Positions 15,800 through 38,197 of a stretch of 64,000 nt of DNA are shown piece by piece. The DNA lies in IMG/VR virus record IMGVR_UViG_3300025669_000020, positions 41,614-105,613 of that record. One strand, 5' to 3'. Numbering within the stretch: position 1 is the stretch's first letter; the number at the start of each line of letters is the position of its first letter. Source of the DNA: a virus. The notes beneath the pieces were generated by a model. The model saw only the letters and a program-made list of their open reading frames with translations, made no database searches and was not told where the DNA came from. The translations under genes and the position numbers were made by a program.

Positions 15800-15807
15800 G
15801 CTACACC

Positions 15808-18448: not shown

Positions 18449-18832
18449 ATGGCACGACTTCGCAAAGGCTCCTTGGCATCTCCCGCTGATAGGGAGATTC
18501 TGGGCCATGTGGCAGCAGCGGAGAGGGCCCTTCGCAAGGCTTTGGATGCTTGTGTCCTAGCTAAGAGGCAATCTCGGTCCCCAGGCAGCAATCTCCGTAT
18601 GGCCCGCGTGATCAGAACACAGCGGGATCTACATCGGGTGATGGCGGCTCTGTCAAATGTGCATCGCATCGTACCCCTTCATGACATGGGCGAGCAGGAT
18701 CCGGGTGAGCTGGATCGTGATCTCATGTCCCCAGAAGAGCGTGCAGCCTTTGATGCTGTGGAAGACCAGCGAGAGGACTTGTTGGCAGCAGTAGCAGAGA
18801 AGTTGACGGCAGCCTGGGAGAGTGCTGAATGA
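18449..18832 (+). CDS. Hypothetical protein
   Basis: ATGA overlap with portal. Confidence 0.5.
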   Translation: MARLRKGSLASPADREILGHVAAAERALRKALDACVLAKRQSRSPGSNLRMARVIRTQRDLHRVMAALSNVHRIVPLHDMGEQDPGELDRDLMSPEERAAFDAVEDQREDLLAAVAEKLTAAWESAE

Positions 18833-21258: not shown

Positions 21259-21289
21259 CGGTATTTCCTCTATGGCTATGGGGGGTCAG
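21259..21289 (+). promoter_or_regulatory. Putative phage late promoter motif
   Basis: CGGT-atttcct-CTAT...GTCAG. Confidence 0.6.
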
Positions 21290-21300: not shown

Positions 21301-24300
21301 ATGCCAAAGCCACTGCCAGCACAGACGGGTTCTCTAAAAACCGCTGCCGATGTAGGGACAGACACGGCGGAGATTTATGCAATCTCCCCGGAAATGCTCT
21401 ACAGGGTTCTCCAACGCAAGACGTGGGAAGAGACTGCCCGTGGGGTGTGGGGTGACAGCGATCACGGGAACATGCCCGGCCAGTGGGAGAAGATGCAGAG
21501 GATCATCCGGGAACATGGCGGGGCAGTGTTCCAGACAGGCAGGGATGGCTATTTCGATGTGAAGGTGCATGGGGGGGTTTCCGAGGGAGGGGCTATGGCT
21601 CCCTATGGGACTCTCAGTACGGAACGTGTGGCCTCGATGCACAGGGAGGCACTACGGGCCCAGGAGATGCTCAAGTGGGTGGTGCAGCCCCTCTCCTTCC
21701 TCTCCAAGCACCACAAGGACTTCATCAACGGTCCTGTAGACGACGTGATGGATCAGGCGTTCCGCGAGATCGCCCCCCATGTGGTCAAGGCTGTGGGGGA
21801 GGCAGAGATCGATGCCGACGTGGATGAATTCCACGATGGGGCCATTCGGGGGAAGTGGGACTATGATCGTGAGCTTCTGTCAGACCCCCCTCGCAGAGAG
21901 ACCGAGGACTTCATCGAGGGGTACACTTGGGGGTTCCAGCACCCTGACATGGTGGGCACCAGGGAGCTGCCTGCTCGGGTCAAGAAGCAGGTGGTCGAGG
22001 ATGCCATCCAAGAATTCCGCCACAAGGTGACGGAGAAGGTTGTCCTGAAGGCACTCCGCTCTGTCTGGGGCAGAGTCAATCCCCTGGAGACATTCAGGAC
22101 CATCATCCGCATGACCAAGAAGCACGGGTGGAAGCTCGGCCTGTTCATCGCCAGTGTGGAGATCCTGGAAACCTTCGTGATGCCCGCCGTGCTCATTCAC
22201 ATCACGGGTAATGCAGCTCTGGCGGTTACGGGTCAACTCCCCTTGAGCGAGATCCTGTACGCCATCATTTTCCCCATCATGTTCCGAGGGAAGGCCGTGG
22301 ACACGTTCACACCTGACGGCCACCTGGACTGGTATGAAGCCTTGTATGGAATGGTGCGGGTGGCAGAGCGGACACCGCAGTCAAACAAACTTCAGGCGAC
22401 GATGGCGGTTTTTGAGGATGTTGTGGGGAACGCTGCCCGGGCTACAGGTCACCTTGGGTGGACGCGAAAAGTCCTGTCGCCAGAGCAGCAGCAGAAAATG
22501 GTGGTGGACTTGAATGGCAGTGCTAGGAACCTGCTTCCTTTGCTCACTTTCAAGTTTGAGAATCCTGCTCAAGAGGCTGGGTACAAGAAGTATCTGAACA
22601 GGATGCGGAACTACCGCAAGATGGTGAAGTCCTTCACGGTTGTGAAGGACTGGGATGACGTTGTAGCTGTGTGCGACAAAATATCTACCAAGTCCAAGGG
22701 GGTCTGGGAGAAGGTGCGGGAGTATGGCAGGGAAGTTCAGGGCGTGCTTGACACCGTGGACACGGAGGTCCAGGGCTCCTTTGCTGTGGGGAAATTCCGG
22801 GTGATCCTGATGTCCTCCGCAAATGGTGTGTGGGATAACGAGATGCTGGAGCGCACCCGGCACGTGTTGCACAAGACCTCCCAGCTTATGGGCAAACACG
22901 GCATGGGGAAGCTCGCAGCAGGCAATGTCTGGGCGTACTCGTCACCCTCCATTCCAGGCAGGAGCAGTGTCGTTGCGTGGTATCGGATGGCAGACGATGC
23001 CTTGTGCCTTGCTTGTGGGTCCGGATGGTGGATGAGGCGCAGTATGGATGACATCCTCAAGACCCTGGTGCATGAGCTGGGGCATCGGGCCTATTTCAAG
23101 ATCCTGGGTGGCAGCGGCCGTAAGGCGTGGGCTGACTTTTTCGAGCTGTCCCAGGAAGTCCCTGATGTGCAGGGTATGATCTCCCGCTGGGAGCGTTATG
23201 TGGAGGGCGCAGGCTCTGACCTGGAGGAATTCCGGCGTGGGCATCTGCAGCGGTATCTTCCCATTGTGAAGAAACGAGATGCCAAAGAGAAATACGACTC
23301 CTACCGCGGGTACCCCACCAAGACATCGATTTCGGGTCTGCAAGCCCTGAAGGACAAGGCCAACAGCATCAAGGTGTTCATGCACCCCGTGACGGTCTAC
23401 TCTGCCTCCAACGAGGCAGAGCTGTTTGCTGAGGTGTTCTCCCATTACATCGTATATGGGCCACAGGCCATTGCACCCGTGGTGCAAGATCAATTCAAGA
23501 GGGCACTCCCCATGGCACGACTAGGCAAAGAAAAAATCCCCGGTGGCCTCTCGGAAGGCAAGGACACCAGCGACCTCGATCCCAAAGAGATGGCGATGGG
23601 GGTCAAGGTTGAAATGGAGCATACTGGAGATCCCGCCCTGGCAAAAGAGATCGCTTCTGATCACCTTGTGGAAATCTCCGACTACTACACTCGTCTGAAG
23701 AAGATGGAGGCTGAAGCCGAGAAGCCTGGCAAGAAGGCCGCTGCCCAGAATGGCAAGAGCACCGGCAACCGCAAGTCCGTGGGCTTCTTCATCCCTCTCC
23801 CCAAGGAGCTGGCGGCGCAGTATCCGAGCAGGGCTCCTGTGGACAAATCCGCACCCCATGTGACCTTGCTCTATGTGGGTGAAGTGACTGCAGCACGGGA
23901 GAAGGAATTCCTGGCTGTGGTGACCAAGGTGATGGCTTCGGAGCCTGGCCCCATCAAGGCTGCCATCGGAGGGGTGGACTACTTCCGGCAGCCTGACAAG
24001 GACCAGTCGGTAGCCATCCAGACGATCAAGTTCTCTCGGGACGTGGGCGAGATGAAGAAGCGTCTGAGGGGTGCCTTGGAGGATGCGGACTTCGTGGTGG
24101 AGGACTCGTTCCCCGGTGCCTACAGGAGCCACACGACCCTGGCCTACCTGGACGGTACGGACTCCGTGTATGAGGGGCCTGTGCCTGTGGGTTCCTGGGA
24201 GTTCGACAGTGTCCCTGTGTGGGGGTTGCCCTCCAACCATGACATTCCCCTGGGGGAGTGGACGCAAGAGGCCCCTGTCAACCGCACGGCTGCTCTGGTT

Positions 24301-24336
24301 GAGGCCTGGGGTTCAATTCTGTGCCGTGAGGTGTAG
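21301..24336 (+). CDS. Polyprotein: hydrophobic hairpin domain, zincin (HELGH), DUF5661-like, 2H phosphoesterase
   Basis: LVHELGHR..ELFAEVF; MGVKVEMEHT..AKEIASDHL.EI.DYY; PHVTL and SHTTL 2H motifs. Confidence 0.8.
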   Translation: MPKPLPAQTGSLKTAADVGTDTAEIYAISPEMLYRVLQRKTWEETARGVWGDSDHGNMPGQWEKMQRIIREHGGAVFQTGRDGYFDVKVHGGVSEGGAMAPYGTLSTERVASMHREALRAQEMLKWVVQPLSFLSKHHKDFINGPVDDVMDQAFREIAPHVVKAVGEAEIDADVDEFHDGAIRGKWDYDRELLSDPPRRETEDFIEGYTWGFQHPDMVGTRELPARVKKQVVEDAIQEFRHKVTEKVVLKALRSVWGRVNPLETFRTIIRMTKKHGWKLGLFIASVEILETFVMPAVLIHITGNAALAVTGQLPLSEILYAIIFPIMFRGKAVDTFTPDGHLDWYEALYGMVRVAERTPQSNKLQATMAVFEDVVGNAARATGHLGWTRKVLSPEQQQKMVVDLNGSARNLLPLLTFKFENPAQEAGYKKYLNRMRNYRKMVKSFTVVKDWDDVVAVCDKISTKSKGVWEKVREYGREVQGVLDTVDTEVQGSFAVGKFRVILMSSANGVWDNEMLERTRHVLHKTSQLMGKHGMGKLAAGNVWAYSSPSIPGRSSVVAWYRMADDALCLACGSGWWMRRSMDDILKTLVHELGHRAYFKILGGSGRKAWADFFELSQEVPDVQGMISRWERYVEGAGSDLEEFRRGHLQRYLPIVKKRDAKEKYDSYRGYPTKTSISGLQALKDKANSIKVFMHPVTVYSASNEAELFAEVFSHYIVYGPQAIAPVVQDQFKRALPMARLGKEKIPGGLSEGKDTSDLDPKEMAMGVKVEMEHTGDPALAKEIASDHLVEISDYYTRLKKMEAEAEKPGKKAAAQNGKSTGNRKSVGFFIPLPKELAAQYPSRAPVDKSAPHVTLLYVGEVTAAREKEFLAVVTKVMASEPGPIKAAIGGVDYFRQPDKDQSVAIQTIKFSRDVGEMKKRLRGALEDADFVVEDSFPGAYRSHTTLAYLDGTDSVYEGPVPVGSWEFDSVPVWGLPSNHDIPLGEWTQEAPVNRTAALVEAWGSILCREV

Positions 24337-24339
24337 TAG

Positions 24340-26983
24340 ATGCATCCCAACCACTACAGAGTCGCCCAGATGCACCTGGAAGCTACCAGCCACAAGAAGT
24401 CCATCGTCCTCATGACGTTCCTGGCAGACCTTGCCCGGAGCCTCGGGGTCGGTCGGCATGTCTACGTCGTGGGTGGGGCAGTGCGGAATTTCGTGATCGA
24501 TGAGCCCATCAAGGACATCGATGTGGTCATCGACTCCCTGGCTCTCGGGGGAGGCAGGGACTCCGAGTGGTTCGCCAAGAAGGTCGTCAAGGCCATCCCC
24601 GTTCCCGTCAACATGGAGACCAACCAGTACGGTGTGGCCCTCCTCCATGTGAAGGGGGACTGGATTCTGGATGGGGACAACCTCAAGGGTGAGGACATCG
24701 AGATCGCCAACGCCCGCAAAGAGTCCTACGGCGGGGCCGAAGGGAAGGGCTACCGAGCCCCACATGGTAGAGCCCGCGACCATCGAGGAAGATGTGGTTC
24801 GAAGGGAATTCACCTTCAATTGTGTTGCGGGGGACACCCTTATCCCCACTGCGCAGGGCATTCTCCGAATCGATCAAATTGCTTCCCGTGAGGTTGGGGA
24901 TCAACAGGACATTCAAATCATGGTGGCAGGGCAGGAGGGTCCTGCTGAAGCTGTGGGGTGGCAGTACAGTGGGTTTGCTCCTACCTTGAGGGTAACAACG
25001 GGGTGGGGTCACACCCTCTCCTGTACGCATCACCATCCATTTCTGGTCCTTCGGGGGCATGGCCATGAGTGGATACAGGCGGATCAGCTTGATGAGGGGG
25101 ATCTGCTTTGTGTGCCTGTGCAGCAAATGATCCGTAGTACCTCATTGATCCTGGGGTTACCTGATCCTCCGAAACCCCGGACAGGTAAACTCAAGGAGGG
25201 GGTGGTAAAACCTGATGTGATGACACCTGAGCTGGCATTCGTGATCGGGTGTGTGGTGGCCGAAGGATCAAACACCCCTACTCGGGTCTCTTTCAGCAAT
25301 TCAGACCCCGCTTTCATTTCCCGGTATATCGAGTGCTTCAACGCTGTGTTCGGGTTCGTGCCCTCACGGAACAAGGTGGTTGAGAAGGGTTCTGTCCGTA
25401 CCCTGCGAGGTGTGGATTTTGTCGCCACTGCTGATGGTTACGACATCCTCGCTAACAGCAAGGCTGTGGTAGGATGGCTGCAAGACCTCGGCCTTTATTG
25501 CGGGGGATCCAAGGGGGGGAAATCTGCATCCCACCACAAGGTTGTGCCGTGGTCTATCCTCCAAGCCGACGAACAGAGCCAACGAGCGTTCCTTGCAGCT
25601 TATCTGGAGGGGGATGGGTGTCTCCACCACACGGGTCGCATCACATACTGTTCGGCATCTCATCAGGTGCGACAGCAGTTGCAGGTGCTTCTGGGCTCCC
25701 ACGGCATCTTGTCCAAGGTTAAGGACAGGTTCGTGTACATCAATGCTGTGGATTCCTCGCGGCTATGGGAGAAGATTCATCCGTGGATGGTCACCAAGAA
25801 ATTCGACTACACAGGCCGCGTGTTCAAGAGCCGCAACCGTTATGGCATTCCAGTGGACTACATTGCAGGGTTCCTCTCGGGCCGTAGACAGGCATCAGCG
25901 GGTAAGGCAGGGGTCGCCTACACAACAGATTCCGGGGATGCACAACCCCTTCGTGGGATGCACGACCCTGTCCGGTTAGTTCGCCGTCTTCTCCATGACG
26001 CATATGCTCGCGGGGATTTCAACGATTTCCTGGATGGTCTTAGGGTCATTAGTCCCAAGGAACACCTCAATCTCCAACGGTTGTTTGATCTCAGCTACCA
26101 ATATGTAGAGGTCACCTCTGTAGAAGATGCGGGCAAACAGGATGTATTCGACATCTCGATGGAAGAGGGGATGGAACCTGCATTTGTGGCGAATGGGGTG
26201 GTAGTACACAACACCCTCATGTGGCGGCTGCACGACCTGGCCCGAGGGCCGGACAAGGCAGAGATCATTGACCTCACCGGGTGCGGTCTGCGGGATTTGA
26301 AGAACCGCGAGCTGCGGTGCCCCTCGGACCCCGACAAGACCTTCTCGGATGACCCGACACGGCTGCTCCGTGTGGTCAAGTTCACCACGAAGTACGGGAT
26401 CAAGATTCCTGCTGACGTGAAGGCTTCCATCAAGCGGAATGCCCCCAAGCTGCGGAAGGCACCTCACAGTGCCCTGTCCAACCTGCTGATCAACACCGTG
26501 CTGGTGGAGCCATACGCCAAAAAGGCTCTCCATCAGATGAAGGACTTGGGTCTGCTGGACGTGCTGGCAGACATGGTGCGAGAGGTGAAGCCTTTCAGGG
26601 AGGCACTGCAGAGCTGGGTGTCCAACCAGCGGGTGCTCCTGATGTTCGACATCATGGACGTGGGGCTTCCCATGAACACCCCCATCGGGTGGCTGGACAA
26701 GGACCAGCAGAAGCGTCTGCGGGAGATCGCCCTTGGGATGGAGCCTGGTGAGGCCACGAAGTTCCTGGCTGTTTTGAAGCAGACTGGAAAGCTCTGGGGG
26801 GACAAGACCTTCTTCCACACCCTGGCTCAAGAGATGGGTGTAGAGCGGACTGGGATGGCAGTGTTCGGCAAGGCTCTTCAGGAAGTCGCCCGTGACATCA
26901 TTCTGTTTGACCCGACTCTGGCGTGGAAGCCCAAGGATATGCGGCAGTGGGCCCGTGAGCGGATGCGGGAAAAGCGGTTCTAG
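24340..26983 (+). CDS. cca: CCA-adding/poly(A) polymerase-family nucleotidyltransferase with intein; one extra base near 24754 joins two frames
   Basis: VGGAVRN..KDIDVV, ARKESY, then EEDVVRREFTFN, IIDLTG.GL.DL, TFSDDPTRLLR. Confidence 0.85.
24821..26212 (+). mobile_element. Intein (464 aa) with LAGLIDADG homing endonuclease
   Basis: Starts CVAGDT, block B TxxHPF, FVIGCVVAEGS and FLAAYLEGDG, ends FVANGVVVHN followed by Thr. Confidence 0.92.
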
Positions 26984-27076
26984 GTCCCCCGCCGAACAAA
27001 TTGTGTTTTCGTGGGTGGGCTTCTGGCTGTCCGAGCGTAGTAGGTTTGTGCGTCTACCTACCACGGAGTGACCTTC

Positions 27077-27982
27077 ATGCAGCCTTCCCCCCACAGCGTA
27101 GCCCAGCAGCATCGCAAGCTCCTGTCCAAGCTGGACGTGTCTGCCGACACCCTGGAAGCACAGCTCCAGGATCTGATCGACGGCGTCGAAGACCTGGATG
27201 AGGCTTCCAAGTCCCTGGGGTTCGATCTCCGTGAACTCCCCAAGCTGCTGAAGGAGCACAAGCACTCCGACGACGCGTACCACCGTGGTGAGACCATCAT
27301 GGAGCACATGCGGTGGGTGCTGGAGGATGTGGAGGCAGTCACCGTTGGGATGGATGAGCCCCGGCGTCGGATTCTGCGTGTGGTGGCTCTCCTGCACGAC
27401 GTGGGCAAGGCATGCACCTACGCCTGGGACGGCGAGAGGTGCAAGGCGACCTTCCACAACCACGACAAGAAGTCTGTGGAGATCGCCAAGGTGCTCCTGG
27501 CTCGGTTCGATGAAGATGTGGAGGACTACAAGCAGCATATCCTCGACATCGTGGCCAACCACGACAAGTTCTTCCAGCTGGGTGATGTGCGCCCCCTCAA
27601 CGGCGGCACCAAGTACCTGCGGAAGTTCACGGAGAAGGCAGTCAGCGTGGGTGAGCAGCTGGAGAACCTTGCGATGTTCGCCCGTGCGGACAGCTCCCGT
27701 GCCCGCACCATCCAGCAGACCCTGGACGAGATCCGTCTCGTCATGGCTGATGTGGTGGAGTACCGGGCCAAGGCCGAGCAGCAGAAGCTGGAGAAAGAAG
27801 AGGCAGCCATCAAGCTCCAGGAGAACATCGTCAAGTACCACGATGAGATCGCCGCTCTGGTGGATGCTGTCGTGCCTGGGCTGTCCAGCGAGCTTCCCGA
27901 CATCAAGGCAGTGAACAAGGGGCTCGGTACTGCTCGGGAGTACAGGGTGCTCAAGCAGCTGCAGGCTATCCTCACTCGCTAG
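27077..27982 (+). CDS. HD-domain phosphohydrolase (CCA-enzyme/PNKP-type HD)
   Basis: YH..ETIMEH, ALLHDVGK, FHNHD, IVANHD. Confidence 0.8.
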   Translation: MQPSPHSVAQQHRKLLSKLDVSADTLEAQLQDLIDGVEDLDEASKSLGFDLRELPKLLKEHKHSDDAYHRGETIMEHMRWVLEDVEAVTVGMDEPRRRILRVVALLHDVGKACTYAWDGERCKATFHNHDKKSVEIAKVLLARFDEDVEDYKQHILDIVANHDKFFQLGDVRPLNGGTKYLRKFTEKAVSVGEQLENLAMFARADSSRARTIQQTLDEIRLVMADVVEYRAKAEQQKLEKEEAAIKLQENIVKYHDEIAALVDAVVPGLSSELPDIKAVNKGLGTAREYRVLKQLQAILTR

Positions 27983-28007
27983 CCTGTCTATACCTCCGGG
28001 TGTGTGA
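27977..28007 (+). promoter_or_regulatory. Putative phage late promoter motif
   Basis: CGCT-agcctgt-CTAT-N12-GTGA. Confidence 0.55.
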
Positions 28008-28022
28008 CACCTGGAGTAGTTG

Positions 28023-29834
28023 ATGCCCCGCGTAGCTGGAATCTTCGAGGCACCCCCCGCCATGCTCAAGTCATTCTTGGGCTGGGCGGTGCCTTTGTAT
28101 GCGGGGCACGTGCTGGCCCAGACAGAAGCCCGCCTTCAGCTCCTGCGGAACCAAGAACAAATCTACTTGGATGCCGTGAAGGAGATGGAGCGCACCCAGC
28201 GGAATCTGGAACATATTGTGGATGCTTTGGAGGTGGGTGGGGAATTCACTTTCCACACCTACAGAGTGCTGCCGAGTGGGAAGCTCTACTCGTTTATCCA
28301 CGGGGCTCAGCGTCGTCTTGATGGGATTCCTGATTCAACGGGGAAGCCTGTACGGTTCTATGCGGTAGGGAAGGGCAGGAAGCGGCTGAAGTACCCCCGC
28401 TGGAGTAACAACACTCGCAAGAATGCCCTGTACTACTTGAGGGGTGATTTGCAGAGCGGCCTCGCTTTCATGGAGGCGGGGATCACGCAGTTCCGTGAGA
28501 GGGGGGACGACCCCGGCTCGGCTTTGGTAGACAATATTCTTCTTCGGCGTGAGTGCCTCAAGCACACATCCAAGGCCAAGGAATACGCCACTAAGACCAA
28601 GCGCAAGCTCCCCGTAAATCTCTCTGGGTGGAGGTATGCTCAGGCCACAGCCAAGGAACTGGCTGCAATCGAGTACAAGAACATCACGGTGATTCTGGAC
28701 TTCAAGGGGCACAGCACTCGTGGTGGTATTTGGAGGCCCGGCCAGAAAGAGTTGCAGGTGGACGTGCTCCACCCCATCCCCTTGACGGTAGCCGAGTTCC
28801 GGGTGGGTCTGGAAAGCATCCAGGAAGTAGCCCGTCATGAGCTACAGCATGTAGGTCAATTCCTGCTGAAAGAGCTGCGGGGTTTGGGGGAGATTGGTGG
28901 TATCCCAGGTGCTTCCGTGCGGGACACCTCTCGGGATGTGTATGGGTTCCCGGCAGATCCCAAGTATGTGCGCCGCCAAGACGAACATGAGCTTCGAGAT
29001 GTGGAGTTCTACACGGACCTCGCGGACGAGGTTCCCAATTTCATGCGGGCTATCCGCAAGGTCTCTCCTGAGGATCAGCAGGTGGCTTTCCGCACTTGGA
29101 CAGGGTTGCAAAAATGGGAACGTACCATGAGCCCCAAGGTGGGGGAGAGCACCTTCTTCCGCAGGTTGCACACATGGAACAAGGCAAAATGGGTGAGAGC
29201 TGTGGGTGAATTCCTGAAGGCCGTTGAGAAGAAAGGCTACCGAGCCCCCTCAGCCTTCCGTGTGGCCTCCCGTCACGTGGCATCGTATTTCAGCATCGGG
29301 GACCATGTCCTCTTTGGGAAGTACAAGAACAAGAAGGGCAAAGTCATTGCTGCCTACCTGGATGAGAAGGGTCACCCCGTGGTGGAGATTGAGCCTGTCC
29401 CCAAGGGCAGGAAGCAGAACAAGATCGTCCAGCTCTACCGCATTTGGCATGCACCCGCGTCCCCCAAGATGGCCAACCAAGACTGGTCCCGACCCTCTGC
29501 TGTGCGCGTAGCCCAGGCTCGCGATGAGGGCTCCAAGGATTTCTTCGACAACCCCATGCGGTCATCGGTGAGGGACTTTGCCCTGTCCAATGCCATCACC
29601 AACGAGCCGGCTGTGGCTCAGCAGTCCCTGGATGATGGGCTCATCACAGAGACTGAAGAAGAGCGGGTGGATGACGCCCCTCTCACCCCATCGGAATCGG
29701 TACAGGAGCCTGGTGGGAAAGAGTTCTCTACCCTGGCGCAGTACCTGATCGAGACCGACACCCCCACCGTAGAGCCCGTGTCCCAGGGGTTTGCCGATAT
29801 TCCTAAGTCCAAGAACTTGGCGGAGGAGGGGTAG
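28023..29834 (+). CDS. Polyprotein: zincin-like (HELQH), KOW/SH3-like module, acidic tail
   Basis: ARHELQHVGQ..EFY; IGDHVLFGKYKNKKGKV. Confidence 0.65.
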   Translation: MPRVAGIFEAPPAMLKSFLGWAVPLYAGHVLAQTEARLQLLRNQEQIYLDAVKEMERTQRNLEHIVDALEVGGEFTFHTYRVLPSGKLYSFIHGAQRRLDGIPDSTGKPVRFYAVGKGRKRLKYPRWSNNTRKNALYYLRGDLQSGLAFMEAGITQFRERGDDPGSALVDNILLRRECLKHTSKAKEYATKTKRKLPVNLSGWRYAQATAKELAAIEYKNITVILDFKGHSTRGGIWRPGQKELQVDVLHPIPLTVAEFRVGLESIQEVARHELQHVGQFLLKELRGLGEIGGIPGASVRDTSRDVYGFPADPKYVRRQDEHELRDVEFYTDLADEVPNFMRAIRKVSPEDQQVAFRTWTGLQKWERTMSPKVGESTFFRRLHTWNKAKWVRAVGEFLKAVEKKGYRAPSAFRVASRHVASYFSIGDHVLFGKYKNKKGKVIAAYLDEKGHPVVEIEPVPKGRKQNKIVQLYRIWHAPASPKMANQDWSRPSAVRVAQARDEGSKDFFDNPMRSSVRDFALSNAITNEPAVAQQSLDDGLITETEEERVDDAPLTPSESVQEPGGKEFSTLAQYLIETDTPTVEPVSQGFADIPKSKNLAEEG

Positions 29835-30386
29835 ATGGCTTCCATTACAGGCTCCTTGAGCAATGACGTAGAGCTGATGTTCCCAGGGGACAGGTTCCCC
29901 GTTTCGGCAGGCCCCACCATGATCGCCAATGGTTGGCGTGGAGGCATCTGGGTCATGTATGTCACCTCCGCCCTGGGTGATTTCGTGGTGGAGACCAGCG
30001 ATGGCACAATGACCTGTGGGTTCCTCCTGTTCCAGAGTGAGCAGTACCCCGCGACCCACATCCTGGAAGGCTCCCCCGGCAACTGGCTGGCTGGCCAGCC
30101 ACGGAGCTGTCAGGCAACCAGTGTGGTCACCCTGATCAGTGGTGGCACCCGTGCCTATTTCCGCAGATACGAGACCATCGCTCTCGCTGCTGGCACCAGG
30201 TCAGGTGGGCCAATCACCTATGCGCTGCAGGACACGTTGAAGGTGTCCGAGAACGGGTTGCTCTGCAATGACTCTGATGCCGCCTTGGCAGCGGCGGGTA
30301 TTGCCACTCCTGTCGTGGTCGGCATTGTGAGTGCAACACCCTCCACAGCCAATGAGGTCCGCCTAGGGGCGGACGTTAAGTACTGA
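29835..30386 (+). CDS. Virion structural protein (decoration-like)
   Basis: beta-rich; ITYAL.D.LKVSENGLLC resembles ITYTTG..LAASRNGFLC of 41799..42464. Confidence 0.55.
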   Translation: MASITGSLSNDVELMFPGDRFPVSAGPTMIANGWRGGIWVMYVTSALGDFVVETSDGTMTCGFLLFQSEQYPATHILEGSPGNWLAGQPRSCQATSVVTLISGGTRAYFRRYETIALAAGTRSGGPITYALQDTLKVSENGLLCNDSDAALAAAGIATPVVVGIVSATPSTANEVRLGADVKY

Positions 30387-32395
30387 TGCCCTCTGCTCCC
30401 ACCCGCGTTGCAGGACGGTTCCTGGAGGCCACCAGGCCCGTGTGCAGGACCAAGGAGGGGTGGGACATCACGTTCAAGGTACTTGTTGATGACCCCCATG
30501 ATCAGATGGGGGTGAAGAAGGGGCACAAGAACCAGCGGGTGGTGGCTTTCATAGAGGGGCAGGAAGTGGGCTACCTCAAGTGGTCCTACATCCCCGAGCA
30601 GGTGTGGGAGCGCCGCTACCCTACGGTGTGGCACTACAGGCGTGATTTTGTAGGGTCCTGGTACGACGCAGAAGGCCAGGACTTGAATGATCTGGAGACC
30701 CTCTGGACACTACTGTTCCAGCATCCCCGCTACTACGGCGAGCCCCGTGAGAAGCCTGACGTGCGGGGCATGAAGAGGGACATCAAGCGGTATCTCAAAC
30801 AGCACCCACAGCTCTCTCCAGCATATGTCAAGTCACGGGAGTTCTGGGTAGATCGGCCCCTGGTCACATATGTGCATGTGGAACCAGCTTGGAGACGACA
30901 CAAGGTAGGGCTTGCCCTTTACACATACGCAGCACGGTGGTTGGCGAAGAAGGGTTTTCCTCTCTATGGGGACACTCTCCAGACAGCAGATGCCAAGGGG
31001 GTTTGGAAGAAGATGCGGAAGCTCAAGCGTATTCCCGTGAAGAACACGGAGTTCGAGCATGGCGGCAAACCTCGTGATCGGATTGATTATCGTCGCGTTG
31101 CCTCCCGGTTCATCTCCAAGCACGCGTGCATCATCGCAGTTGGTGACTGGGAGGGGAGCCGTTGTCTACTGAAGGTGCGGGATCGGAACTACCGTCCTGA
31201 CCTGGACGTGATCCACAAGGTCAAGGCCGGGGTGGAGCTGCTCTATGTCCACGACAAGAAGACGGGCTGGGTAGAGGGGCTGAATGAACACGGGATCGGG
31301 ATCGTGAACACCTCCCTCCTGGTGATCCGGGATGAGAACGAGGTTGACCTGACCACCTCGGAGGGGAAGAAGCTCAAGGACGGCACTCGTATCCGTGAGG
31401 CTCTGACCAAGAAGACCCTGGATGATGCGGTGGACTCCATCTGCAACTACGAGGGTGGGCTCATGGGCCACACCTTCCTCAGTGATGGGGAGACCACCAT
31501 CGTTGTGGAGCACACCATCAAGCACGATTGCAAGACCACGGTGCTCACGGGGGCAGATGTTGTTGTCCGAACGAACCATGGTGTCTCCCATGAGGACGCC
31601 GGGTACACAGACGGGAAGGACGCGGAGTCCTCTCACAAGCGGTCTGATGATGCAGAAGCTGCGCTCTCTGGGGTCAAGAAGATCGAGGATTTGGCTCCTA
31701 CCTTGATGGAGGCTCGGGGTCGGAAGAAGGACCCCAACAACATGGTGCGGAACACCGCCAACATGCGTACCACGTCCCAGATGCTGCTCGACCTGGACAA
31801 CCTGACATTGTACCTCTACCTGATCCCAGGGAAGGTGCAGTGGAAGGGGTACGTGAACAAGATGCCCAAGGGTCGGAAGCCGAAGCTCAAGCTTCAGGTG
31901 CTCCGGTACAAGGACGGGGACAGCCTTGATCTCGAACCAGTCCTGAAACAGGCCCACGTGGAGCCCATGGTGCAGATGGAAGACCATGGCTCTGATGAGG
32001 TGATATTCTACCTGAGGGACAGGAACACCGATAAGGTGTTGGCCGACCTCATCCTCACCGCTATGGATCCCCCCGGCTACTGGTTCGTGGGTCATTCCGG
32101 AGCCCTTGTGCGGGGACAGGGGTATGGCACCGAGCTGTACATGGCTGCCATCAAGTACGCCACGGAACAGGGACACGGGGTGGTGTCCGATGAGGAAGCC
32201 ATTGCCTCAGCCAAGGCAGCACGCAGGTATGTGCGGCGACGCGGGGTGCATTTTCAGGACGGCTCCGTGTACAAGACACGCAGATCCTTCCTGACCTTCT
32301 GCCTGGGGTATCCAGAGGAGGAGGATGCTCACGACATCAGGGACGCGGTGGTGATGACCTCTCGCAAGGGTGCTGCCTACCCCTCGGAGAGATGA
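30386..32395 (+). CDS. Polyprotein: GNAT + Ntn hydrolase (C45/CBAH-like) + GNAT
   Basis: VHVEPAWRRHKVGLALY; CIIAV..LLKVRDRNY, EGLNEHGIGIVN, VRTNHG, RTTSQ; RGQGYGTELY. Confidence 0.75.
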   Translation: MPSAPTRVAGRFLEATRPVCRTKEGWDITFKVLVDDPHDQMGVKKGHKNQRVVAFIEGQEVGYLKWSYIPEQVWERRYPTVWHYRRDFVGSWYDAEGQDLNDLETLWTLLFQHPRYYGEPREKPDVRGMKRDIKRYLKQHPQLSPAYVKSREFWVDRPLVTYVHVEPAWRRHKVGLALYTYAARWLAKKGFPLYGDTLQTADAKGVWKKMRKLKRIPVKNTEFEHGGKPRDRIDYRRVASRFISKHACIIAVGDWEGSRCLLKVRDRNYRPDLDVIHKVKAGVELLYVHDKKTGWVEGLNEHGIGIVNTSLLVIRDENEVDLTTSEGKKLKDGTRIREALTKKTLDDAVDSICNYEGGLMGHTFLSDGETTIVVEHTIKHDCKTTVLTGADVVVRTNHGVSHEDAGYTDGKDAESSHKRSDDAEAALSGVKKIEDLAPTLMEARGRKKDPNNMVRNTANMRTTSQMLLDLDNLTLYLYLIPGKVQWKGYVNKMPKGRKPKLKLQVLRYKDGDSLDLEPVLKQAHVEPMVQMEDHGSDEVIFYLRDRNTDKVLADLILTAMDPPGYWFVGHSGALVRGQGYGTELYMAAIKYATEQGHGVVSDEEAIASAKAARRYVRRRGVHFQDGSVYKTRRSFLTFCLGYPEEEDAHDIRDAVVMTSRKGAAYPSER

Positions 32396-32892
32396 TGCCC
32401 ACTCTGACCCCTACCGGGCAGTCCGCCATGATGGATGGTGTTGTGTGGCTGGGTGATGTGCGGAAAGACCTCTTCATCCACTTCACCACACAGGAGAGGG
32501 CGGATCAGATCCTGGCAGCAGGCAAGCTCCTGATGAACCCTCCCTACAAGAAGTTCGGGACGGATGCCGTCAACGCAGTCTCCCTCAAGTGGGGGTGGTG
32601 GTCACCTGGGGTGCAGATGAAGCACCTGGGTTCCAAGGCTGACCTTGTGGGGATCGTGTTCCAGACATCCGTGGTCCCCGAGCGGGGGTATGTGGAAGAG
32701 ATCATCTGGAAGCGGGACGTACCCCTCAGGGGTGCCAAGGTGGTGCCTTTGTCCCAGGGTGCCTCGATGCTCCGGCGCACCCCAGAGCGCATCGCGGAAG
32801 ACGACATGGTGGTCTACAAGGAATCCCAGCTCCGTACAGCCGGGCTGGAGGTTGCCTGGGGGATGTGCTGTCGCGGTAATCCCTCTATTTAG
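32392..32892 (+). CDS. Putative ADP-ribosyltransferase-fold protein
   Basis: FIHFT..A..I...G.L, AVS, YVEEIIW pattern (H-S-E type). Confidence 0.5.
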   Translation: MMPTLTPTGQSAMMDGVVWLGDVRKDLFIHFTTQERADQILAAGKLLMNPPYKKFGTDAVNAVSLKWGWWSPGVQMKHLGSKADLVGIVFQTSVVPERGYVEEIIWKRDVPLRGAKVVPLSQGASMLRRTPERIAEDDMVVYKESQLRTAGLEVAWGMCCRGNPSI

Positions 32893-32905
32893 TCACCGCT
32901 GGTAG
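32874..32905 (+). promoter_or_regulatory. Putative phage late promoter motif
   Basis: CGGT-aatccct-CTAT-N13-GTAG. Confidence 0.6.
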
Positions 32906-32914
32906 AGGAACCCT

Positions 32915-35900
32915 ATGCCCACTGTCGATAAAGTAGCTGCCCGTTGGCTGGAAGCGCGCCAGGATCCCCTGGACGAGAAGTACATCCAGAAGCTCCGCAA
33001 GGAGTTCCTGATGCTCCTTCGGAACGCGGACAGGGCCAAGACTTTCGACACCCCCACAGCGGAGAAGTACCGCAAGGCTGTGGTTCGGTGGCGGGAGATG
33101 TTCGAGCTTTATGGGGGGCAGATTCGGGAGGACCTGAAGGGTAGAGAGCGTGCAGCCAAGAGCGGTTATGGGAAGAACACCAAGGCCAATGAACAGTGGG
33201 CACATTGGTATCTGGAACACATGAAGCCTTTCTGGGAAATGCACTATGAGCTGGGTAATGTTCCCGCGGTGCCAGACCTGCGCGCTGGTACTTCAGGAGG
33301 GCCTTTCGAAGACCCCGAGGTGGTGGAGGCCCGGCTTGTAGATTTTTATGAGACGCGCTATCCAGAGAGGGATGCCAAGAGGGAGGTTGAGCGGTATCTC
33401 TGGAGTTCCCCGCTCTGGACACGGAAGCAGGCAGAGGCGGATTCTCTGGAGCGTTGGGCGGAAATCACTCGCAAGTGGGCTGCACGGGCTCGGAGCAAGG
33501 CTCGTGCAACGTGGAAGTATCTCACTGATCTGGGCAACTGGGCTGCAGAGTCCGGTGGGGGTGGGGAGGCCATTGCATTGACCACGACCCAGGATGAGAG
33601 GGTGAGCCTGGAAGGTTTCTCCCTGCTTTTCCGGGGGTTCGATGATGCTGGCTCGAACCAGGAGTATTTGGAGGCACTGAAGGCAGCCCTGGCCAAGTAC
33701 AAGCAGAAGGCACGTAAGCACCTGCCTCTTCTTCTGAAGAAACAACTCCCATTCGTGGTGAACTGGTCCTGGGCCAAAGACCATGGAAGCGCCGCCGCCA
33801 CCTACAACGGCGACCACATCGAGATCACTCCTTGGGGGTTGACTTCCAACACTGACAACATGGTGCGGACATTGGCTCATGAGATGGGCCACCACCTCTA
33901 CGACATCCTGGGTCGGGAGAAGCAGCACTTCTGGGAAAGTGCCCTCCGTGGGGACTACAAGAAGCTGGATTTGCGGCATGCAGTCAAGGTCATGAAGTCT
34001 GTGGGGGCTAGCACCACCATCAGTGACAAGCTGGCTCAGAAGGACCCCATCCTCTATCTGCAGTTGGGCACCCTCCTGAACCATCATGGCTACAAGGGTT
34101 TGGACTTGTTCGGGCTGAAATCCATTGAGGAGTATTTGGCAGATCCGGAGAACAGTCCCATTGTTATAGTGCCTGCCTCTCCAATCTCAGCGTATGCGGG
34201 AACGAGTGCCTCAGAGGCTTTCTGTGAGGCTGTCGGGCACCTGGTGGCCTACGGCAAGAACCGGCTGCCTGACAAGGTGTTGGGTTGGATGAAGATCATG
34301 CTTCCCCATGTGAAGTTCGGGGCAGAGCGGCTTGGCCCCAACACCCCGCTGATGGAACACGGCAAGGTCAAGGTCAAGTACCGGGTGAAGAGCAGTGGCA
34401 AGGGCGTCGCTGTGACGGTCTATTATGGCCGTGGGAAAATTGGTGGGATGAATGCTTTTGTCACCAAATACCCCGAACGGGATTACTGCGGAGATGACGT
34501 TTGGAAGCTCCTGAAGAAGTACCCACAGGTTGAGGACACCAGCCGTGGTAGGTGGACACCAAATGGCGGGGAAGAGCGCACCAACACGAGGGGTCTCCAA
34601 GTCTACAAGGCATTCCTCACCGATGAAAGCAAGCAGGGGTTGGGCATTGGCAGGGCGATGTACCTGGCGATGATGGCGGAGTGGTTCGATAAGGTTGGGC
34701 CCTTCCTGTTCATGCCTATGGTCTGTGGGTTGGGTACATCGGGGACATCTGCCGCAGCTTTCCGTGTGTGGAAGTCTCTGGCACGGGATTTCCCCTCCAG
34801 CGGCAATGTGATTGCAGTGCTTCGGCGTCCTCGGTTGCCTTCCCCCTCCAAGGTAGCACACAGGTTCATGGGAGATTCTTCTCTTCACCCTGTGAGGGGT
34901 ATCTCCACGCATGACGGGGACGGGCGTCCTCTGCGGCAGCCCTCTGGTTTGTTGCGTATGATGCCTGACTATGGAGAGGGCGGAGCCAATCTCCCTCGTG
35001 GGAATCCTGGTGAGGTCGAAGAGGTGTGCGAGGAACTGCAGGCTATGGGGATGCGGGTGGCAGCATATGATCTGATTACAGACCTCATGCCTAAAGAGAT
35101 GGACACATTCAGAATCGGACCTTTGCACATCAGTATTTCTCCTGGGTATGACAAGTTCCAACGCCTGTTCACCCGGCAGATGGCTGCTGCCCTCCAGCAG
35201 CACAAGAAGCTCCTCCCAGAAATGCAAATCCGAGCAGCAAATGTGGTGCTTGTACACTCCCGAGGTTGGGGTGAGGATCTGGCGGGCGACTATGACGACG
35301 GGACGATCCGGATCCTATTCAAGAACAGCCCTGCCGCTGTGGAGACCGCCTTGCACGAGATCGGGCATCAGCTGTGGGATCACAACAGTGGTTTGCGGAG
35401 CCAGTGGCGTATTTTTGACTCGGTTGCATGGGATACCAAGGGGTATCGGATCAATGCTGTAGCTTCGGAGAGCATGGAGGAGCACTTCTGCGAGGCATAC
35501 GCCCTTGTGGTGGGTGGTTCTCTCCGGGGTTGGCGGAAGGAGGCTATTCTGATGGCTATCGAAGGAAAGACCCACCCCAGGATGCAGGCATCCAGAGTGG
35601 CCACACGGTTGGCGGATCGGTTCCTCAGTGCAGCAGCCAAGTACCAGAAGAAGAAGGAAGTCCCCAAGGCTGATGGCAAGGGGACCATGACCGTCTACGA
35701 GTACAGCGACGGGCAGGTTCAGCACCGGAACCGGGAGAAGGCCGAGCGCGTAGAGAAACTACGGGGGAACCTCGACAAGCTCCGTGGCCAGGTGAAGAAA
35801 GACCTCAAGTCCAAGGACCCAAGCACAAGGCTCAGTGCTTTGGCTGTGGGGCTCATGAACGACACCTACGAGCGTGTAGGCAATGCAGGCTCCGCCAAGG

Positions 35901-37318
35901 AAGGACACTTCGGTGTCACCGTGTGGCAGGCCCAGCATGTAACCCTGGGCAAGGGGAAGGCCACCTTCAGCTATGTAGGCAAGAGCGGGGTCAAGCAGAA
36001 GAAGGTCACCTCCGACAAGGCTTTGATCTCTGTGCTGCGTGAAGCCATGAAGGGGAAGTCCGGTACGGATAATGTGTTCTCACTGGACGATGTTTCCGTG
36101 GGTGCTAGCGGGGTGAACGAGTACCTCAAGCAGTTCAACATCACCGCGAAGGACATCCGAGGGCTGCATGCCAACAGGGAGATGCAGACCCGGCTCAAGA
36201 GCGTTCGTTCCAAGGGCGGCAAGCTCCCAGCTGACAAGAAAAAGCGGGATGAGAAGCTCAAGGCGGAGTTCAAGAAGGCTCTGGAGGGAGCTGCAGAGGC
36301 TGTGGGCCATGAGCCCACTACCCTGAAGGGTCAGTACCTCGTGCCTGGGTTGGAGGACAGCTACATCAAGGACGGCACTGTGATGGACAAGCTGCACAAG
36401 AAGGCTCGTGTGGCACTTCCCCCAAGCAAGTGGGTGGATGCGGTGTCTACGGAGCTGGACAGGGCTCAGAAGGAACAGGTCTGGACCGTTTACCACATGA
36501 CCTATGCGACTATCGGAGAACACATTGGGAGCTTGGGGCAGCTCCTGTCCAAGTACAAGCTCCTGTGGTTGATGGATGTCGATGGTGACCAGGAGATCGA
36601 TGCCTTCATCGCCTACAAGAAGACTCCTTTTGGCTACAAGATCGCCCTGGGAGGAACAGACGGCACCAGGGCTGCTGTGAGGGCATTTGTGCGGAAGCAC
36701 CAAGAGTTGATGGTGCGTCCAGGGTGGTATGCAGAGGCATCCGGCAAGCCCGATAAGCTGATGTCCAAGATGGGCCTGCGCCCTCTGGAAGATGAGAGTG
36801 CTGTGCGTGGGGTACTGGTAGGCAAGGACATCGAGTGGGGGCAGGATGGTTGGTACACCCGAACCCTGGGTGGTCTTGGGAAGGTTAAGAAGCGGATGTA
36901 CGGACACCCCATAGTGAGGGGTCGTGCGCTCATGGCCTCCGATGTGGAGTGGGAAGACCTCACAGGGAGGACGCTTACGGGTGAGGTGGTAGACACGGAC
37001 TCCAACGTGTGGATCGTGGCAGATGCCACTGGCAGAGAGCATCACCTGGAAGATGGGTGGGACTTTGTGCGGAGGGTGGCAACCAAGACCCCCGCAGAGC
37101 GTGAGGATGCAGAGGTGGAGCGGCTCAGTCGCAAGGAGCCCAAAGTCAAACCTCCCCGCAAGGATCTCCGCAGGCAGCGTATGGAAGTGGATCAGGAAGA
37201 CGATCCCGACATGAAACAGGACAAAAAGAATCAGTCCCACAATTACAAGGACATAGGGGCAAGCGTGCTTTCTGTGCTGGAACGACAGTACAAATTCAGC
37301 GCCTGGACGGTATGGTAG
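32915..37318 (+). CDS. 1467-aa polyprotein: zincin, GNAT, zincin, DNA topoisomerase IB, further domains
   Basis: HEMGH..EAFCE; KQGLGIGRAMY; HEIGH..EHFCE; TopoIB ERVGN, YVGKSG, TAKDIRG, VGHEP..LKGQYL. Confidence 0.8.
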   Translation: MPTVDKVAARWLEARQDPLDEKYIQKLRKEFLMLLRNADRAKTFDTPTAEKYRKAVVRWREMFELYGGQIREDLKGRERAAKSGYGKNTKANEQWAHWYLEHMKPFWEMHYELGNVPAVPDLRAGTSGGPFEDPEVVEARLVDFYETRYPERDAKREVERYLWSSPLWTRKQAEADSLERWAEITRKWAARARSKARATWKYLTDLGNWAAESGGGGEAIALTTTQDERVSLEGFSLLFRGFDDAGSNQEYLEALKAALAKYKQKARKHLPLLLKKQLPFVVNWSWAKDHGSAAATYNGDHIEITPWGLTSNTDNMVRTLAHEMGHHLYDILGREKQHFWESALRGDYKKLDLRHAVKVMKSVGASTTISDKLAQKDPILYLQLGTLLNHHGYKGLDLFGLKSIEEYLADPENSPIVIVPASPISAYAGTSASEAFCEAVGHLVAYGKNRLPDKVLGWMKIMLPHVKFGAERLGPNTPLMEHGKVKVKYRVKSSGKGVAVTVYYGRGKIGGMNAFVTKYPERDYCGDDVWKLLKKYPQVEDTSRGRWTPNGGEERTNTRGLQVYKAFLTDESKQGLGIGRAMYLAMMAEWFDKVGPFLFMPMVCGLGTSGTSAAAFRVWKSLARDFPSSGNVIAVLRRPRLPSPSKVAHRFMGDSSLHPVRGISTHDGDGRPLRQPSGLLRMMPDYGEGGANLPRGNPGEVEEVCEELQAMGMRVAAYDLITDLMPKEMDTFRIGPLHISISPGYDKFQRLFTRQMAAALQQHKKLLPEMQIRAANVVLVHSRGWGEDLAGDYDDGTIRILFKNSPAAVETALHEIGHQLWDHNSGLRSQWRIFDSVAWDTKGYRINAVASESMEEHFCEAYALVVGGSLRGWRKEAILMAIEGKTHPRMQASRVATRLADRFLSAAAKYQKKKEVPKADGKGTMTVYEYSDGQVQHRNREKAERVEKLRGNLDKLRGQVKKDLKSKDPSTRLSALAVGLMNDTYERVGNAGSAKEGHFGVTVWQAQHVTLGKGKATFSYVGKSGVKQKKVTSDKALISVLREAMKGKSGTDNVFSLDDVSVGASGVNEYLKQFNITAKDIRGLHANREMQTRLKSVRSKGGKLPADKKKRDEKLKAEFKKALEGAAEAVGHEPTTLKGQYLVPGLEDSYIKDGTVMDKLHKKARVALPPSKWVDAVSTELDRAQKEQVWTVYHMTYATIGEHIGSLGQLLSKYKLLWLMDVDGDQEIDAFIAYKKTPFGYKIALGGTDGTRAAVRAFVRKHQELMVRPGWYAEASGKPDKLMSKMGLRPLEDESAVRGVLVGKDIEWGQDGWYTRTLGGLGKVKKRMYGHPIVRGRALMASDVEWEDLTGRTLTGEVVDTDSNVWIVADATGREHHLEDGWDFVRRVATKTPAEREDAEVERLSRKEPKVKPPRKDLRRQRMEVDQEDDPDMKQDKKNQSHNYKDIGASVLSVLERQYKFSAWTVW

Positions 37319-37427: not shown

Positions 37428-37507
37428 GCGACAGGCAGACTCCCAAGTGATCTGTCTTGCGCCGCTACAGACAGTCTCACTACAACCCCAGCAACAGGAG
37501 TCGCCCC

Positions 37508-38197
37508 ATGGCCAGGATTACACGCCGAGGTGCCCGCAACGTCACGCTGGATCTCGACAAGATCGCTTCTCTGTTCCAGGATCACCACGAGCTGATGGGC
37601 ATCCCCCAGAAGATCGCTGCTGATTTCGCATATCGCTGTGACCTCATCTCCGACCATGTGGAGAGGCATGTCCTCGCCATGGAGAAGTCCGCAAGCGAAG
37701 AGGAAGAGGGAAAGGAAGCAACTGAGGCCGAGAAGCCTCAGACCCAGATCGATGATGATCCCGCATCCGACGACCAGAACAAGCCCGAGCACTACTACCA
37801 CGGGAAGAACGCCGAGGACGAGACCGGACTTTCGGTCGAGCCTACTGGCGGCTTTGACCCCAATGAGATCGCTGACAAGAAAAGCGGTCCCCTTGAGGCA
37901 CCTCCCGCAGAGGAAGGCGTCGAAGGCCACTTCACCCAGGTTAACTTCCAGCAGCTTTGCGACAAGGAAGAAGGCCCCGGTGTCGGAACCCAGGTCGACA
38001 AGTTCGCCGCCGAAGAAGCTGTACTTGCCGCCATGCTGGAAGAAGAAGGCATGACTGGCAAGGCCGCTGGCGACGACGATGACGAAGATGAGGAAGAGGA
38101 CTCCGATGAGGATGTCGAGAAGGAAGCCTCCGAGACGGAAGCCTCCGAGACGGAAGCCTCTACCGAGACCTTCCACGGCTACAACCTTTTCGCATAG
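37508..38197 (+). CDS. Acidic scaffold/core-like head protein
   Basis: Very acidic; KxA sites; EASET x3 repeat. Confidence 0.6.
   Translation: MARITRRGARNVTLDLDKIASLFQDHHELMGIPQKIAADFAYRCDLISDHVERHVLAMEKSASEEEEGKEATEAEKPQTQIDDDPASDDQNKPEHYYHGKNAEDETGLSVEPTGGFDPNEIADKKSGPLEAPPAEEGVEGHFTQVNFQQLCDKEEGPGVGTQVDKFAAEEAVLAAMLEEEGMTGKAAGDDDDEDEEEDSDEDVEKEASETEASETEASTETFHGYNLFA

Follow-up and report, generated by a model that had tools for sequence, protein, structure and literature searches.

A polyvalent-protein locus with a recurrent peptide tag in the head gene cluster of an uncultured megaphage

Why would a very large phage carry a run of unrelated, multidomain enzymes in the middle of its head genes? 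The question is raised by a 16-kb cassette at positions 21301-37318 (plus strand) of a 64,000-nucleotide (nt) stretch, hereafter the window, that covers bases 41614-105613 of the 105.6-kb IMG/VR contig IMGVR_UViG_3300025669_000020. CheckV rates the contig 23% complete, and a whole genome of approximately 450 kb is estimated from this fragment. Several cassette proteins carry a short recurrent peptide, RVAxR in its simplest form, which we call the tag. By its architecture, its genomic context and its hub peptidase, the cassette is a polyvalent-protein locus. We give an even chance to a fuller reading, namely that it is a hypervariable polyvalent-protein locus of an uncultured megaphage with a phage G-type capsid, whose tagged proteins are loaded into the capsid and delivered with the DNA.

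The gene order on the plus strand is TerL, portal, cassette, J246, K193, a prohead-protease-like gene, M402, an ORF (open reading frame) of 254 amino acids (aa) and the capsid gene. The portal (18829..20601; phrog_16240, 5.2e-23; weak Portal_Mu match) forms the upstream boundary, and the cassette begins 700 nt past it. Downstream lie J246 (37457..38197), an acidic protein with a conserved N-terminal segment, recognised by reading the sequence and by its homologues in relatives, and K193 (38207..38788), which combines an SH3-like N-terminal part, the tag-like ERVARAFVKRALYW at about residue 106 and a Cys-rich C-terminal part, and which is kept directly upstream of the protease gene in relatives. 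The prohead-protease-like protein (38788..40395), also conserved in relatives, matched phrog_18299 ('head maturation protease', 8.7e-10) and phrog_2774 (2.5e-21), and a PDB sequence search with it gave no match. The major capsid protein (42474..43349) is of the phage G gp27 type (phrog_2522, 1.1e-50; PDB 6WKK, E 9.2e-65, full length). An earlier reading of the sequence alone, the original prediction, had placed the cassette between portal and prohead protease, and this placement was confirmed: its ORFs are all present and the flanking genes were matched by PHROG.

The same arrangement was found in related phages. The portal is 55-69% identical, over the best tblastn segment, to the portals of 58 IMG/VR relatives (50% in loci L047 and L053), and its further relatives include the 485-kb uncultured phage LR745208 (63% identity), Tunturiibacter phage Tunturi_5 and Bacillus phage G. 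The location of the cassette between the portal and the head genes is conserved over the 58 relatives. K193 was reached in 33 of the 58 loci, at a distance of 2.7-9.4 kb from the portal, compared with 17.6 kb in the window; in the other loci the interval exceeds the approximately 10 kb fetched. Phage G and Tunturi_5 were set aside as guides, as they share the portal and capsid type and have no cassette or tag near the portal. A proteome of phage G particles contains many enzymes, from a phage too distant for the result to be transferred (PMC12484599).

The cassette comprises nine plus-strand ORFs, in an arrangement resembling a late operon, with approximately 20 shuffled modules from unrelated enzyme families. 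A1011 (1011 aa; 21301..24336) carries a tag-like ERVASMH at residue 107, a hydrophobic region at residues ~280-330, RVAER at residue 353, a predicted lethal factor (LF)-like zincin at residues ~547-751 (HELGH at 591), a DUF5661 domain at residues 763-804 (Pfam E 5e-10) and a 2H phosphoesterase at residues 844-953 (Pfam E 9e-7). Its hydrophobic region (22138-22290), between the tag-like sites at 107 and 353, consists of two adjacent stretches that resemble membrane spans. It is followed by a CCA/poly(A)-polymerase-type nucleotidyltransferase, split between ORFs 24340-24891 and 24671-26983, and by D304 (27068..27982), an HD-domain protein (PF01966, 3.5e-8). E604 (28020..29834) begins with a tag variant (MPRVAGIFEA) and contains an HExxH module of a second type (HELQH at 273), the tag RVASRH at residue 414, a small KOW/SH3-like module at residues ~420-475 and a C-terminal module at residues 508-598; in relatives, the modules at 404-477 and 508-598 were found apart from each other. 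F183 (29835..30386), without an assigned function, has homologues 50-63% identical in L007-L009, L012, L013 and L059, located between terL and portal in several relatives; its proposed paralogy to the ORF preceding the capsid gene was rejected, the similarity spanning 22 residues only.

G669 (30386..32395) starts with the tag TRVAGRFLEA, followed by a GNAT-like segment at residues ~155-204, the tag RRVASRF at residue 237, a K-H-A-Cys248 junction, an AAT-type Ntn hydrolase at residues ~248-510 (PF03417, 26.5 bits against a cut-off of 23.2) and a second GNAT-like segment at residues ~576-620. The sequence K-[HQ]-A-C-[IV]-I-A at the start of the Ntn domain is kept in three loci (G669, L059 and L013). 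Ntn hydrolases normally free their nucleophile Cys through self-cleavage, as is established for the family. Among the junctions, only the K-H-A/Cys boundary of G669 has a mechanism that could explain a cut, and this would be Ntn self-processing and not the action of a protease. I1467 (1467 aa; 32915..37318) begins with the tag KVAARWLEA and continues with an LF-like zincin (residues 263-483), a GNAT-like region (~490-640), the tag KVAHRF (~646), a partial zincin (743-898), the tag RVATRLADRFL (894), a TopoIB domain (905-1177), a GNAT_CG-like region (~1190-1340) and a conserved charged C-terminal module (1385-1449). The TopoIB domain was supported by PF01028 (3.2e-26) and by PDB 2f4q, Deinococcus TopIB (4.6e-10 over residues 920-1161). 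It contains HEPTTLKGQYLVP at about residues 1142-1154, and a plausible active-site Tyr occurs in LKGQYLVP, assigned by comparison with the S/T-K-x-x-Y motif of type IB topoisomerases.

H166 (32392..32892) is a small protein to which alignment and a predicted structure assign, with moderate confidence, the ADP-ribosyltransferase (ART) fold. In an alignment of six homologous sequences, H30-x-T32, R36, S64 and E102-E103 were invariant. The model has a predicted local distance difference test score (pLDDT) of 74.5, and its structural matches belong almost entirely to the ART superfamily: the best was Tpt1/KptA, with a middling Z of 6.3 (root-mean-square deviation (rmsd) 3.6 Å over 90 residues; VIA), followed by TreTu, DarT, Pierisin and cholera toxin, with DarT/PARP as the atlas lead. 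Foldseek returned no match for H166 at E 0.001 or better.

Most of the domain calls in the original prediction were borne out. DUF5661, 2H phosphoesterase, nucleotidyltransferase, Ntn hydrolase and TopoIB were each recovered by Pfam or PHROG, and its ART-like unit corresponds to H166 at the moderate level given above. The three GNATs it had listed have weaker support: in G669 two Pfam matches both fall below threshold, and the two GNAT-like stretches of I1467 are based on motifs and on the annotation of homologues such as P0083, so that we regard these assignments as moderate. Overlooked were the HD protein, a 464-aa intein and a frameshift in the nucleotidyltransferase. No Pfam or PHROG match to a MuF domain was obtained for any cassette protein at permissive E-values, which leaves room for a very remote relative, and a MuF-type head-protein fusion was accordingly rejected. 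PDB sequence searches with A1011 and G669 yielded nothing useful, and most excised inter-domain segments received no Pfam assignment.

The peptidase modules tie the locus to polyvalent proteins most directly. All four predicted HExxH motifs are present (A591, E273, I322 and I814); the E273 module belongs to a separate family from the A/I322 zincins. The modules A547-751 and I263-483 are paralogous (E 2.5e-10), and across 22 non-identical members of this family in the loci, the HExxH motif, a Pro, a Tyr and an E-x-F-x-E sequence are invariant. A model of I1467 260-480 (pLDDT 87.5) gave as its best match the catalytic domain of anthrax lethal factor, residues 600-774 (Z 9.8, rmsd 3.9 Å over 134 residues; matches include 4dv8; VIA), and on this modelled structure the module is lethal factor-like. 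Foldseek, which had been proposed as a check for each domain, found only weak zincin matches with the same model. In L020, L022, L023, L045 and L050, two to five tandem LF-like zincin paralogues were observed as separate minus-strand genes upstream of terL.

Comparison across related contigs, also proposed earlier, showed the domain shuffling expected: the same modules recur in different orders and combinations, both solo and fused. The term polyproteins applies only in part. The window itself holds nine separate ORFs, several multidomain, whereas in L019, L033, L041, L043, L054 and L056 the same modules are fused in-frame into single ORFs of 1772-3091 aa (2495 in L019, 2103 in L033, 2808 in L041, 3091 in L054 and 2048 in L056). 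A fusion of H166 with a downstream TopoIB occurs in L004 and L019. A J246 homologue forms the C-terminal part of a TopoIB polyprotein ORF in L043, L044 and L052 (tblastn), with TopoIB confirmed by Pfam in the fused ORFs of L043 and L044. In most relatives, TopoIB is followed by a conserved charged segment, ATKT-x-AEKEDE ... KPPR-x-DL ... DLSLNYK-RVA-x-RW. At least 336 TopoIB-anchored proteins of 806-2568 residues were found in databases, on contigs of up to 530 kb and with shuffled Pfam sets; their partner domains include PolyA_pol, 2H, DUF5661, PAP2, RNA_ligase, HAD_SAK_1, GNAT, AAT, PF18760, SOD, ChaC and NUDIX. TopoIB is the conserved anchor of the protein family. Where the source annotation names these homologues, it reads only 'DNA topoisomerase IB' or 'tRNA nucleotidyltransferase'. 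One of them, P0002 (1665 aa, on a 35-kb contig), is a near-identical variant of I1467 with an insertion of approximately 198 residues between residues ~570 and ~710; the idea that it was a fusion of H166 with I1467 was rejected on account of this internal insertion.

The likeness to polyvalent proteins claimed by the original prediction held for the architecture, the portal context and the LF-like zincins. For polyvalent proteins encoded next to portal or terminase genes, Iyer 2017 predicted packaging together with processing by zincins, with lethal factor 4dv8 as the reference fold (PMC5512222). Shared features are several unrelated enzymatic domains in one polypeptide (A1011, G669 and I1467), genes beside portal and terminase, a hub zincin of lethal-factor fold, 2H, GNAT-like and ART-like modules, and solo and fused versions of modules in related elements. 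Unlike polyvalent proteins as described there, the cassette family is anchored on TopoIB and rich in CCA-type nucleotidyltransferase and RNA repair, has no detected MuF domain, and occurs in genomes of megaphage size with a locus reaching 17 kb. In that paper, topoisomerase is mentioned once and CCA never, and the pol-beta nucleotidyltransferase is listed only for polyvalent proteins of conjugative elements; term searches of it turned up no peptide tag at junctions or termini (PMC5512222). Relative to the polyvalent proteins of that work, the topoisomerase-anchored, RNA-repair-rich, tagged form is new. No publication linking 'topoisomerase IB' to 'huge phages' came up in a literature search.

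The module content suggests what such proteins might do. The 2H, CCA enzyme, HD and Tpt1/KptA-like modules of the window, together with the RNA ligase, HAD_SAK and PAP2 of homologues, suggest a repertoire for RNA and tRNA repair, which appears to be joined to DNA relaxation (TopoIB) and to modification of proteins or small molecules (GNAT and Ntn). This suggests a role in RNA/tRNA repair and DNA topology at least as much as in generic anti-defence.

The original prediction also named the tag. Its claim that RVAxR marks the junctions was upheld in that the motif is real, enriched and found at termini and between domains, but it does not mark every junction. The [KR]xA sites that it listed as well are a pattern of very low information content. 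Five exact RVAxR copies occur in the cassette proteins and none in eight flanking head ORFs (TerL, portal, J246, K193, protease, M402 and two small ORFs). The full motif, which we regard as specific to this clade, is broader, [RK]-V-A-x-[RK]-[YFWH]-[LM], often with E-A/G after it and an Ala/Ser/Pro-rich stretch before it. Canonical tags stand at the N-termini of G669 and I1467 and variants at those of E604 and of the nucleotidyltransferase (RVAQMHLEA), and a targeting role for them is only a candidate one; internal tags were found at E414, G237, I646 and I894, as well as in K193.

The tag census covers one 105-kb fragment, 58 loci of approximately 21 kb and 120 homologues that partly overlap those loci. 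With a position-specific scoring matrix trained on relatives only, 14 sites were detected in the plus-strand ORFs of the genome, compared with 0-1 in shuffles and 1-3 in minus-strand frames. Over 42 non-redundant relatives, the interval from portal to J246/K193 was 7-9 times tag-denser than elsewhere; strict tags numbered 35 in the portal-proximal interval and 8 elsewhere (3.35 versus 0.39 per 10,000 aa). Among the top 120 homologues of the TopoIB region in the database, tags numbered 165 versus approximately 4 in shuffles, and 28 of the 165 lay no more than 30 aa from the N-terminus. Pfam domains were mapped in seven homologues, and each of their 11 tags fell outside domain envelopes. Tag codons vary synonymously, which points to selection at the peptide level and led us to reject a DNA-level element (recombination linker or promoter). 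Tags near stop codons are genuine C-terminal tags: the stops are a mixture of TAA, TAG and TGA, and past most of them no long ORF continues in frame; recoding or readthrough was rejected on these grounds. The K193 homologues of L014 and L034 end just past a canonical tag. Because the tag stands at the extreme ends of many unrelated proteins, is present on the conserved head-module protein K193 and is concentrated in the portal-proximal interval, it is the best candidate for a recruiting signal. It may also, or instead, be a cleavage site.

Further tagged proteins were seen outside the cassette at 9661-10092, 10750-11361, 52931-53326 and 53329-55338, of which only the last had a family match, to a SWIM zinc finger. 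A protein of 309 aa encoded outside the window (G000 23171-24100; L065:3171-4097) carries two tags, MLHRVATRWIL near its N-terminus and SERVATKFLSQ at its C-terminus, and has a weak Sigma70_r2 match (E 0.026). As a sigma factor, if it is one, this protein would be a candidate for a transcription factor carried in the capsid.

A promoter-like motif may bear on when the cassette is expressed. The sequence CGGT-N7-CTAT occurs at 21259..21273, starting 42 nt before the start codon of A1011, and at 32874..32888, starting 41 nt before that of I1467. The window contains seven copies, beginning at 7789, 14211, 21259, 32874, 52900, 55790 and 56680, all on the plus strand, against 0.76 expected; all 10 copies in the genome are likewise on the plus strand, and each precedes an ORF by 12-56 nt. 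Besides A1011 and I1467, the motif heads the TerL operon as well as several further genes with a tag, and it follows the portal gene directly in L007/8, L029, L032, L033 and L041. This pattern fits co-regulation of the cassette with the packaging genes.

Under the reading in which the tagged proteins are capsid cargo, the cassette proteins would be made late, together with the head proteins, and recruited into the procapsid through the tag. There they might be trimmed by the embedded zincins or the prohead protease. Delivery with the DNA would then make RNA repair, DNA relaxation and protein modification available from the first moments of infection. In its boldest form, which we entertain only tentatively, the tag is a portable capsid-loading address, comparable in function to the T4 capsid-targeting sequence or to the cargo peptides of encapsulins, that works at either end of a protein or between modules, and a widespread megaphage clade loads a reshuffled kit of at least 10 enzymes for co-injection. 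That kit would comprise tRNA/RNA repair, TopoIB, peptidases, acyl- and ADP-ribosyl-transferases and possibly a sigma-like factor.

Several points weigh against capsid loading. Packaging and cleavage of the cassette proteins are both steps that we infer. The functions of J246 and K193 are assigned from synteny only, and the argument from fusions depends on them; moreover, the K193-fused ORFs (L022, L025 and L034) contain no Pfam or recognisable enzyme domain, and only two slightly longer K193 homologues occur in a large database, for which reasons K193 as a frequent enzyme carrier was rejected. Tags are spaced at approximately one per 1000 aa in the homologues (rising from 1.1 to 1.9 tags between proteins of 1 kaa and 2.3 kaa) and thus cannot release every domain. 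The canonical tag was not found in the portal regions of phage G and Tunturi_5, where the cassette is absent too, nor in the 21 kb examined of the closer relatives L011, L020 and L047, which have short intervals. Proteins encoded in other parts of the genome, among them the weakly sigma-like one, are tagged too.

In a different explanation, which we consider rather unlikely, the cassette would be an island of accessory enzymes for RNA/tRNA repair, DNA relaxation and acyl or ADP-ribosyl transfer that act late in the cytoplasm and are not capsid cargo, the portal junction merely tolerating insertions. The tag would then have another role, such as localisation or the binding of a shared partner, a chaperone or an unfoldase. 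The locus is indeed a hotspot of variable length that is also invaded by inteins and homing endonucleases, its modules resemble the normally cytoplasmic 'Swiss-army-knife' RNA repair (HAD_SAK, RNA_ligase, 2H, CCA and PAP2), and tags are also found elsewhere in the genome on proteins that do not look structural. By contrast, the portal-to-scaffold/protease location is conserved over the 58 relatives, modules are fused to J246 in some of them and K193 is tagged, the tag is 7-9 times enriched in the interval, and LF-like zincins, a hallmark of packaged polyvalent proteins, are present (PMC5512222). The resemblance to Swiss-army-knife and jumbo-phage RNA repair lies in the combination, within a protein or an operon, of 2H, CCA, HAD_SAK, RNA ligase and Tpt1/KptA-like modules (PF10307 description; PMC7824862); unlike in those systems, the modules here are fused to TopoIB and zincins and lie inside the head module. 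In a 2021 jumbo-phage survey from the group of Iyer et al., TopoIB and CCA enzymes appear as separate replication and repair genes, and polyvalent proteins are treated in passing (PMC7824862).

We think it unlikely that the tag, instead of being an address label, is mainly a site at which the zincins cut, in cis or in trans, between the basic and the aromatic residue, with capsid loading, if any, depending on other features. Gluzincins, including lethal factor, favour a hydrophobic or aromatic P1' and basic residues upstream, a preference that fits [RK]-V-A-x-[RK] followed by an aromatic residue. The zincins have invariant catalytic residues and a lethal-factor fold, tags lie between domains, and autoprocessing of polyvalent proteins by such peptidases was proposed by Iyer et al. 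(PMC5512222). However, many tags stand 3-10 residues from the N-terminus or 4-16 from the C-terminus, where a cut would remove few residues; L020 has several zincin paralogues, yet the stretch scanned there is free of canonical tags; and domain junctions greatly outnumber tags.

Known systems of capsid loading offer a partial parallel to the address-label role. In T4, Alt and the internal proteins carry an N-terminal capsid-targeting peptide that is removed by the prohead protease. The cassette resembles this system (Alt, IPI-III; gp21) in that some of its unrelated proteins begin with a short peptide, here a candidate targeting signal, and in that its genes lie in the head cluster, and T4 cargo likewise includes host-modifying enzymes such as an ART; T4 cargo is injected with the DNA, and injection is what we infer here. 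Unlike in T4, the tag is of unrelated sequence and is also C-terminal and internal, and the cassette-side protease has no known cleavage consensus. The prohead cleavage motif of phiKZ-like phages, S/A/G-x-E, differs from the cassette tag; Glu at tag position -1 as a T4/phiKZ-type cleavage site was rejected, Glu being found in a minority of tags. The heads of giant phages of the phiKZ/SPN3US type contain numerous proteins, enzymes among them, which are processed at a defined motif and enter the host by ejection (PMC5694885, PMC10052503). These phages represent a different lineage from the phage G-type capsid found here, and their packaged proteins are paralogous families and not shuffled enzyme modules.

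That chance motifs and over-called ORFs in GC-rich DNA produced the whole picture is practically negligible: the base composition is 58% GC and long spurious frames are numerous on both strands, but Pfam/PHROG and structural matches, more than 300 database homologues, and a tag count of 14 versus at most 1 in the genome and approximately 40-fold in homologues, with strong strand bias, argue against it.

The remaining head genes complete the setting. TerL (15760-18159, plus strand) matched PHROG at 4.6e-23. M402 (40365..41573, plus strand), a highly acidic protein in a slot between protease and major capsid protein that is conserved, is a putative scaffold judging from its sequence. The roles given here to J246, K193, M402 and the protease are likewise putative, drawn from weak profile matches and synteny. 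Directly after the portal stop, a small plus-strand ORF (20611-20796) copies portal residues 495-538 at approximately 50% identity and is, on this similarity, a partial duplication of the portal C-terminus. On the minus strand, the interval has a single gene candidate, an ORF of 122 aa (20793-21161) with HETGH and a weak Peptidase_M48 match (E 0.005).

The nucleotidyltransferase (24340..26983, plus strand) shows that the locus also hosts selfish elements. PolyA_pol, phrog_1614 and phrog_2244 matches occur in both of its frames, and its sequence VVGGAVRNF...DIDVV fits the GG-x-VR and D-x-D motifs (PF01743 and phrog_2244). One extra nt near 24754-24757 splits the gene into its two ORFs, whereas L041, L044 and L019 read it in one frame at GKGY-K-PHMVEP; an error in the assembly, loss of the gene to a pseudogene or a +1 frameshift site (TAC-CGA-G) may account for this difference. 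Within the gene lies a 464-aa class-1 intein with a LAGLIDADG homing endonuclease (24821..26212, plus strand; Intein_splicing 3e-11, LAGLIDADG_3 2e-10). The intein junctions are FTFN/CVAGDTL... and ...VVVHN/TLMW, and the intein, which is intact, also contains GHTLSCTHHH (block B) and LEGDG. It is present in L041 and L044 and absent from L019, L052 and L054, and the intein-free alleles of relatives join exactly at FTFN-TLMW. Elsewhere in the clade, terL has an insertion at about residue 284 in L011, L015, L016, L054, L057 and L060, with approximately 24% identity to the intein region of the nucleotidyltransferase, and in some of L054-L059 the portal is enlarged by an in-frame insertion of approximately 1.5 kb near residue 331. 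In the window, a free-standing LAGLIDADG homing endonuclease with a helix-turn-helix lies directly after the capsid gene (43545-44696, plus strand; PF03161, 9e-21). Inteins and other selfish elements appear to be spreading among the head and cargo genes of this clade.

Even without packaging, the cassette belongs to a large unannotated class that numbers at least 336 giant proteins. Should the tag prove to be a signal for loading or processing, the proteins injected by an uncultured megaphage could be listed from sequence, and the free swapping of cargo modules would be explained. It would also offer a candidate means of introducing foreign proteins into capsids of very large size. The content of the cassette suggests that these phages arrive with RNA repair (2H, CCA enzyme, HD and Tpt1-like) and TopoIB, which bears on how they survive tRNA-cleaving and nucleotide-signalling defences.

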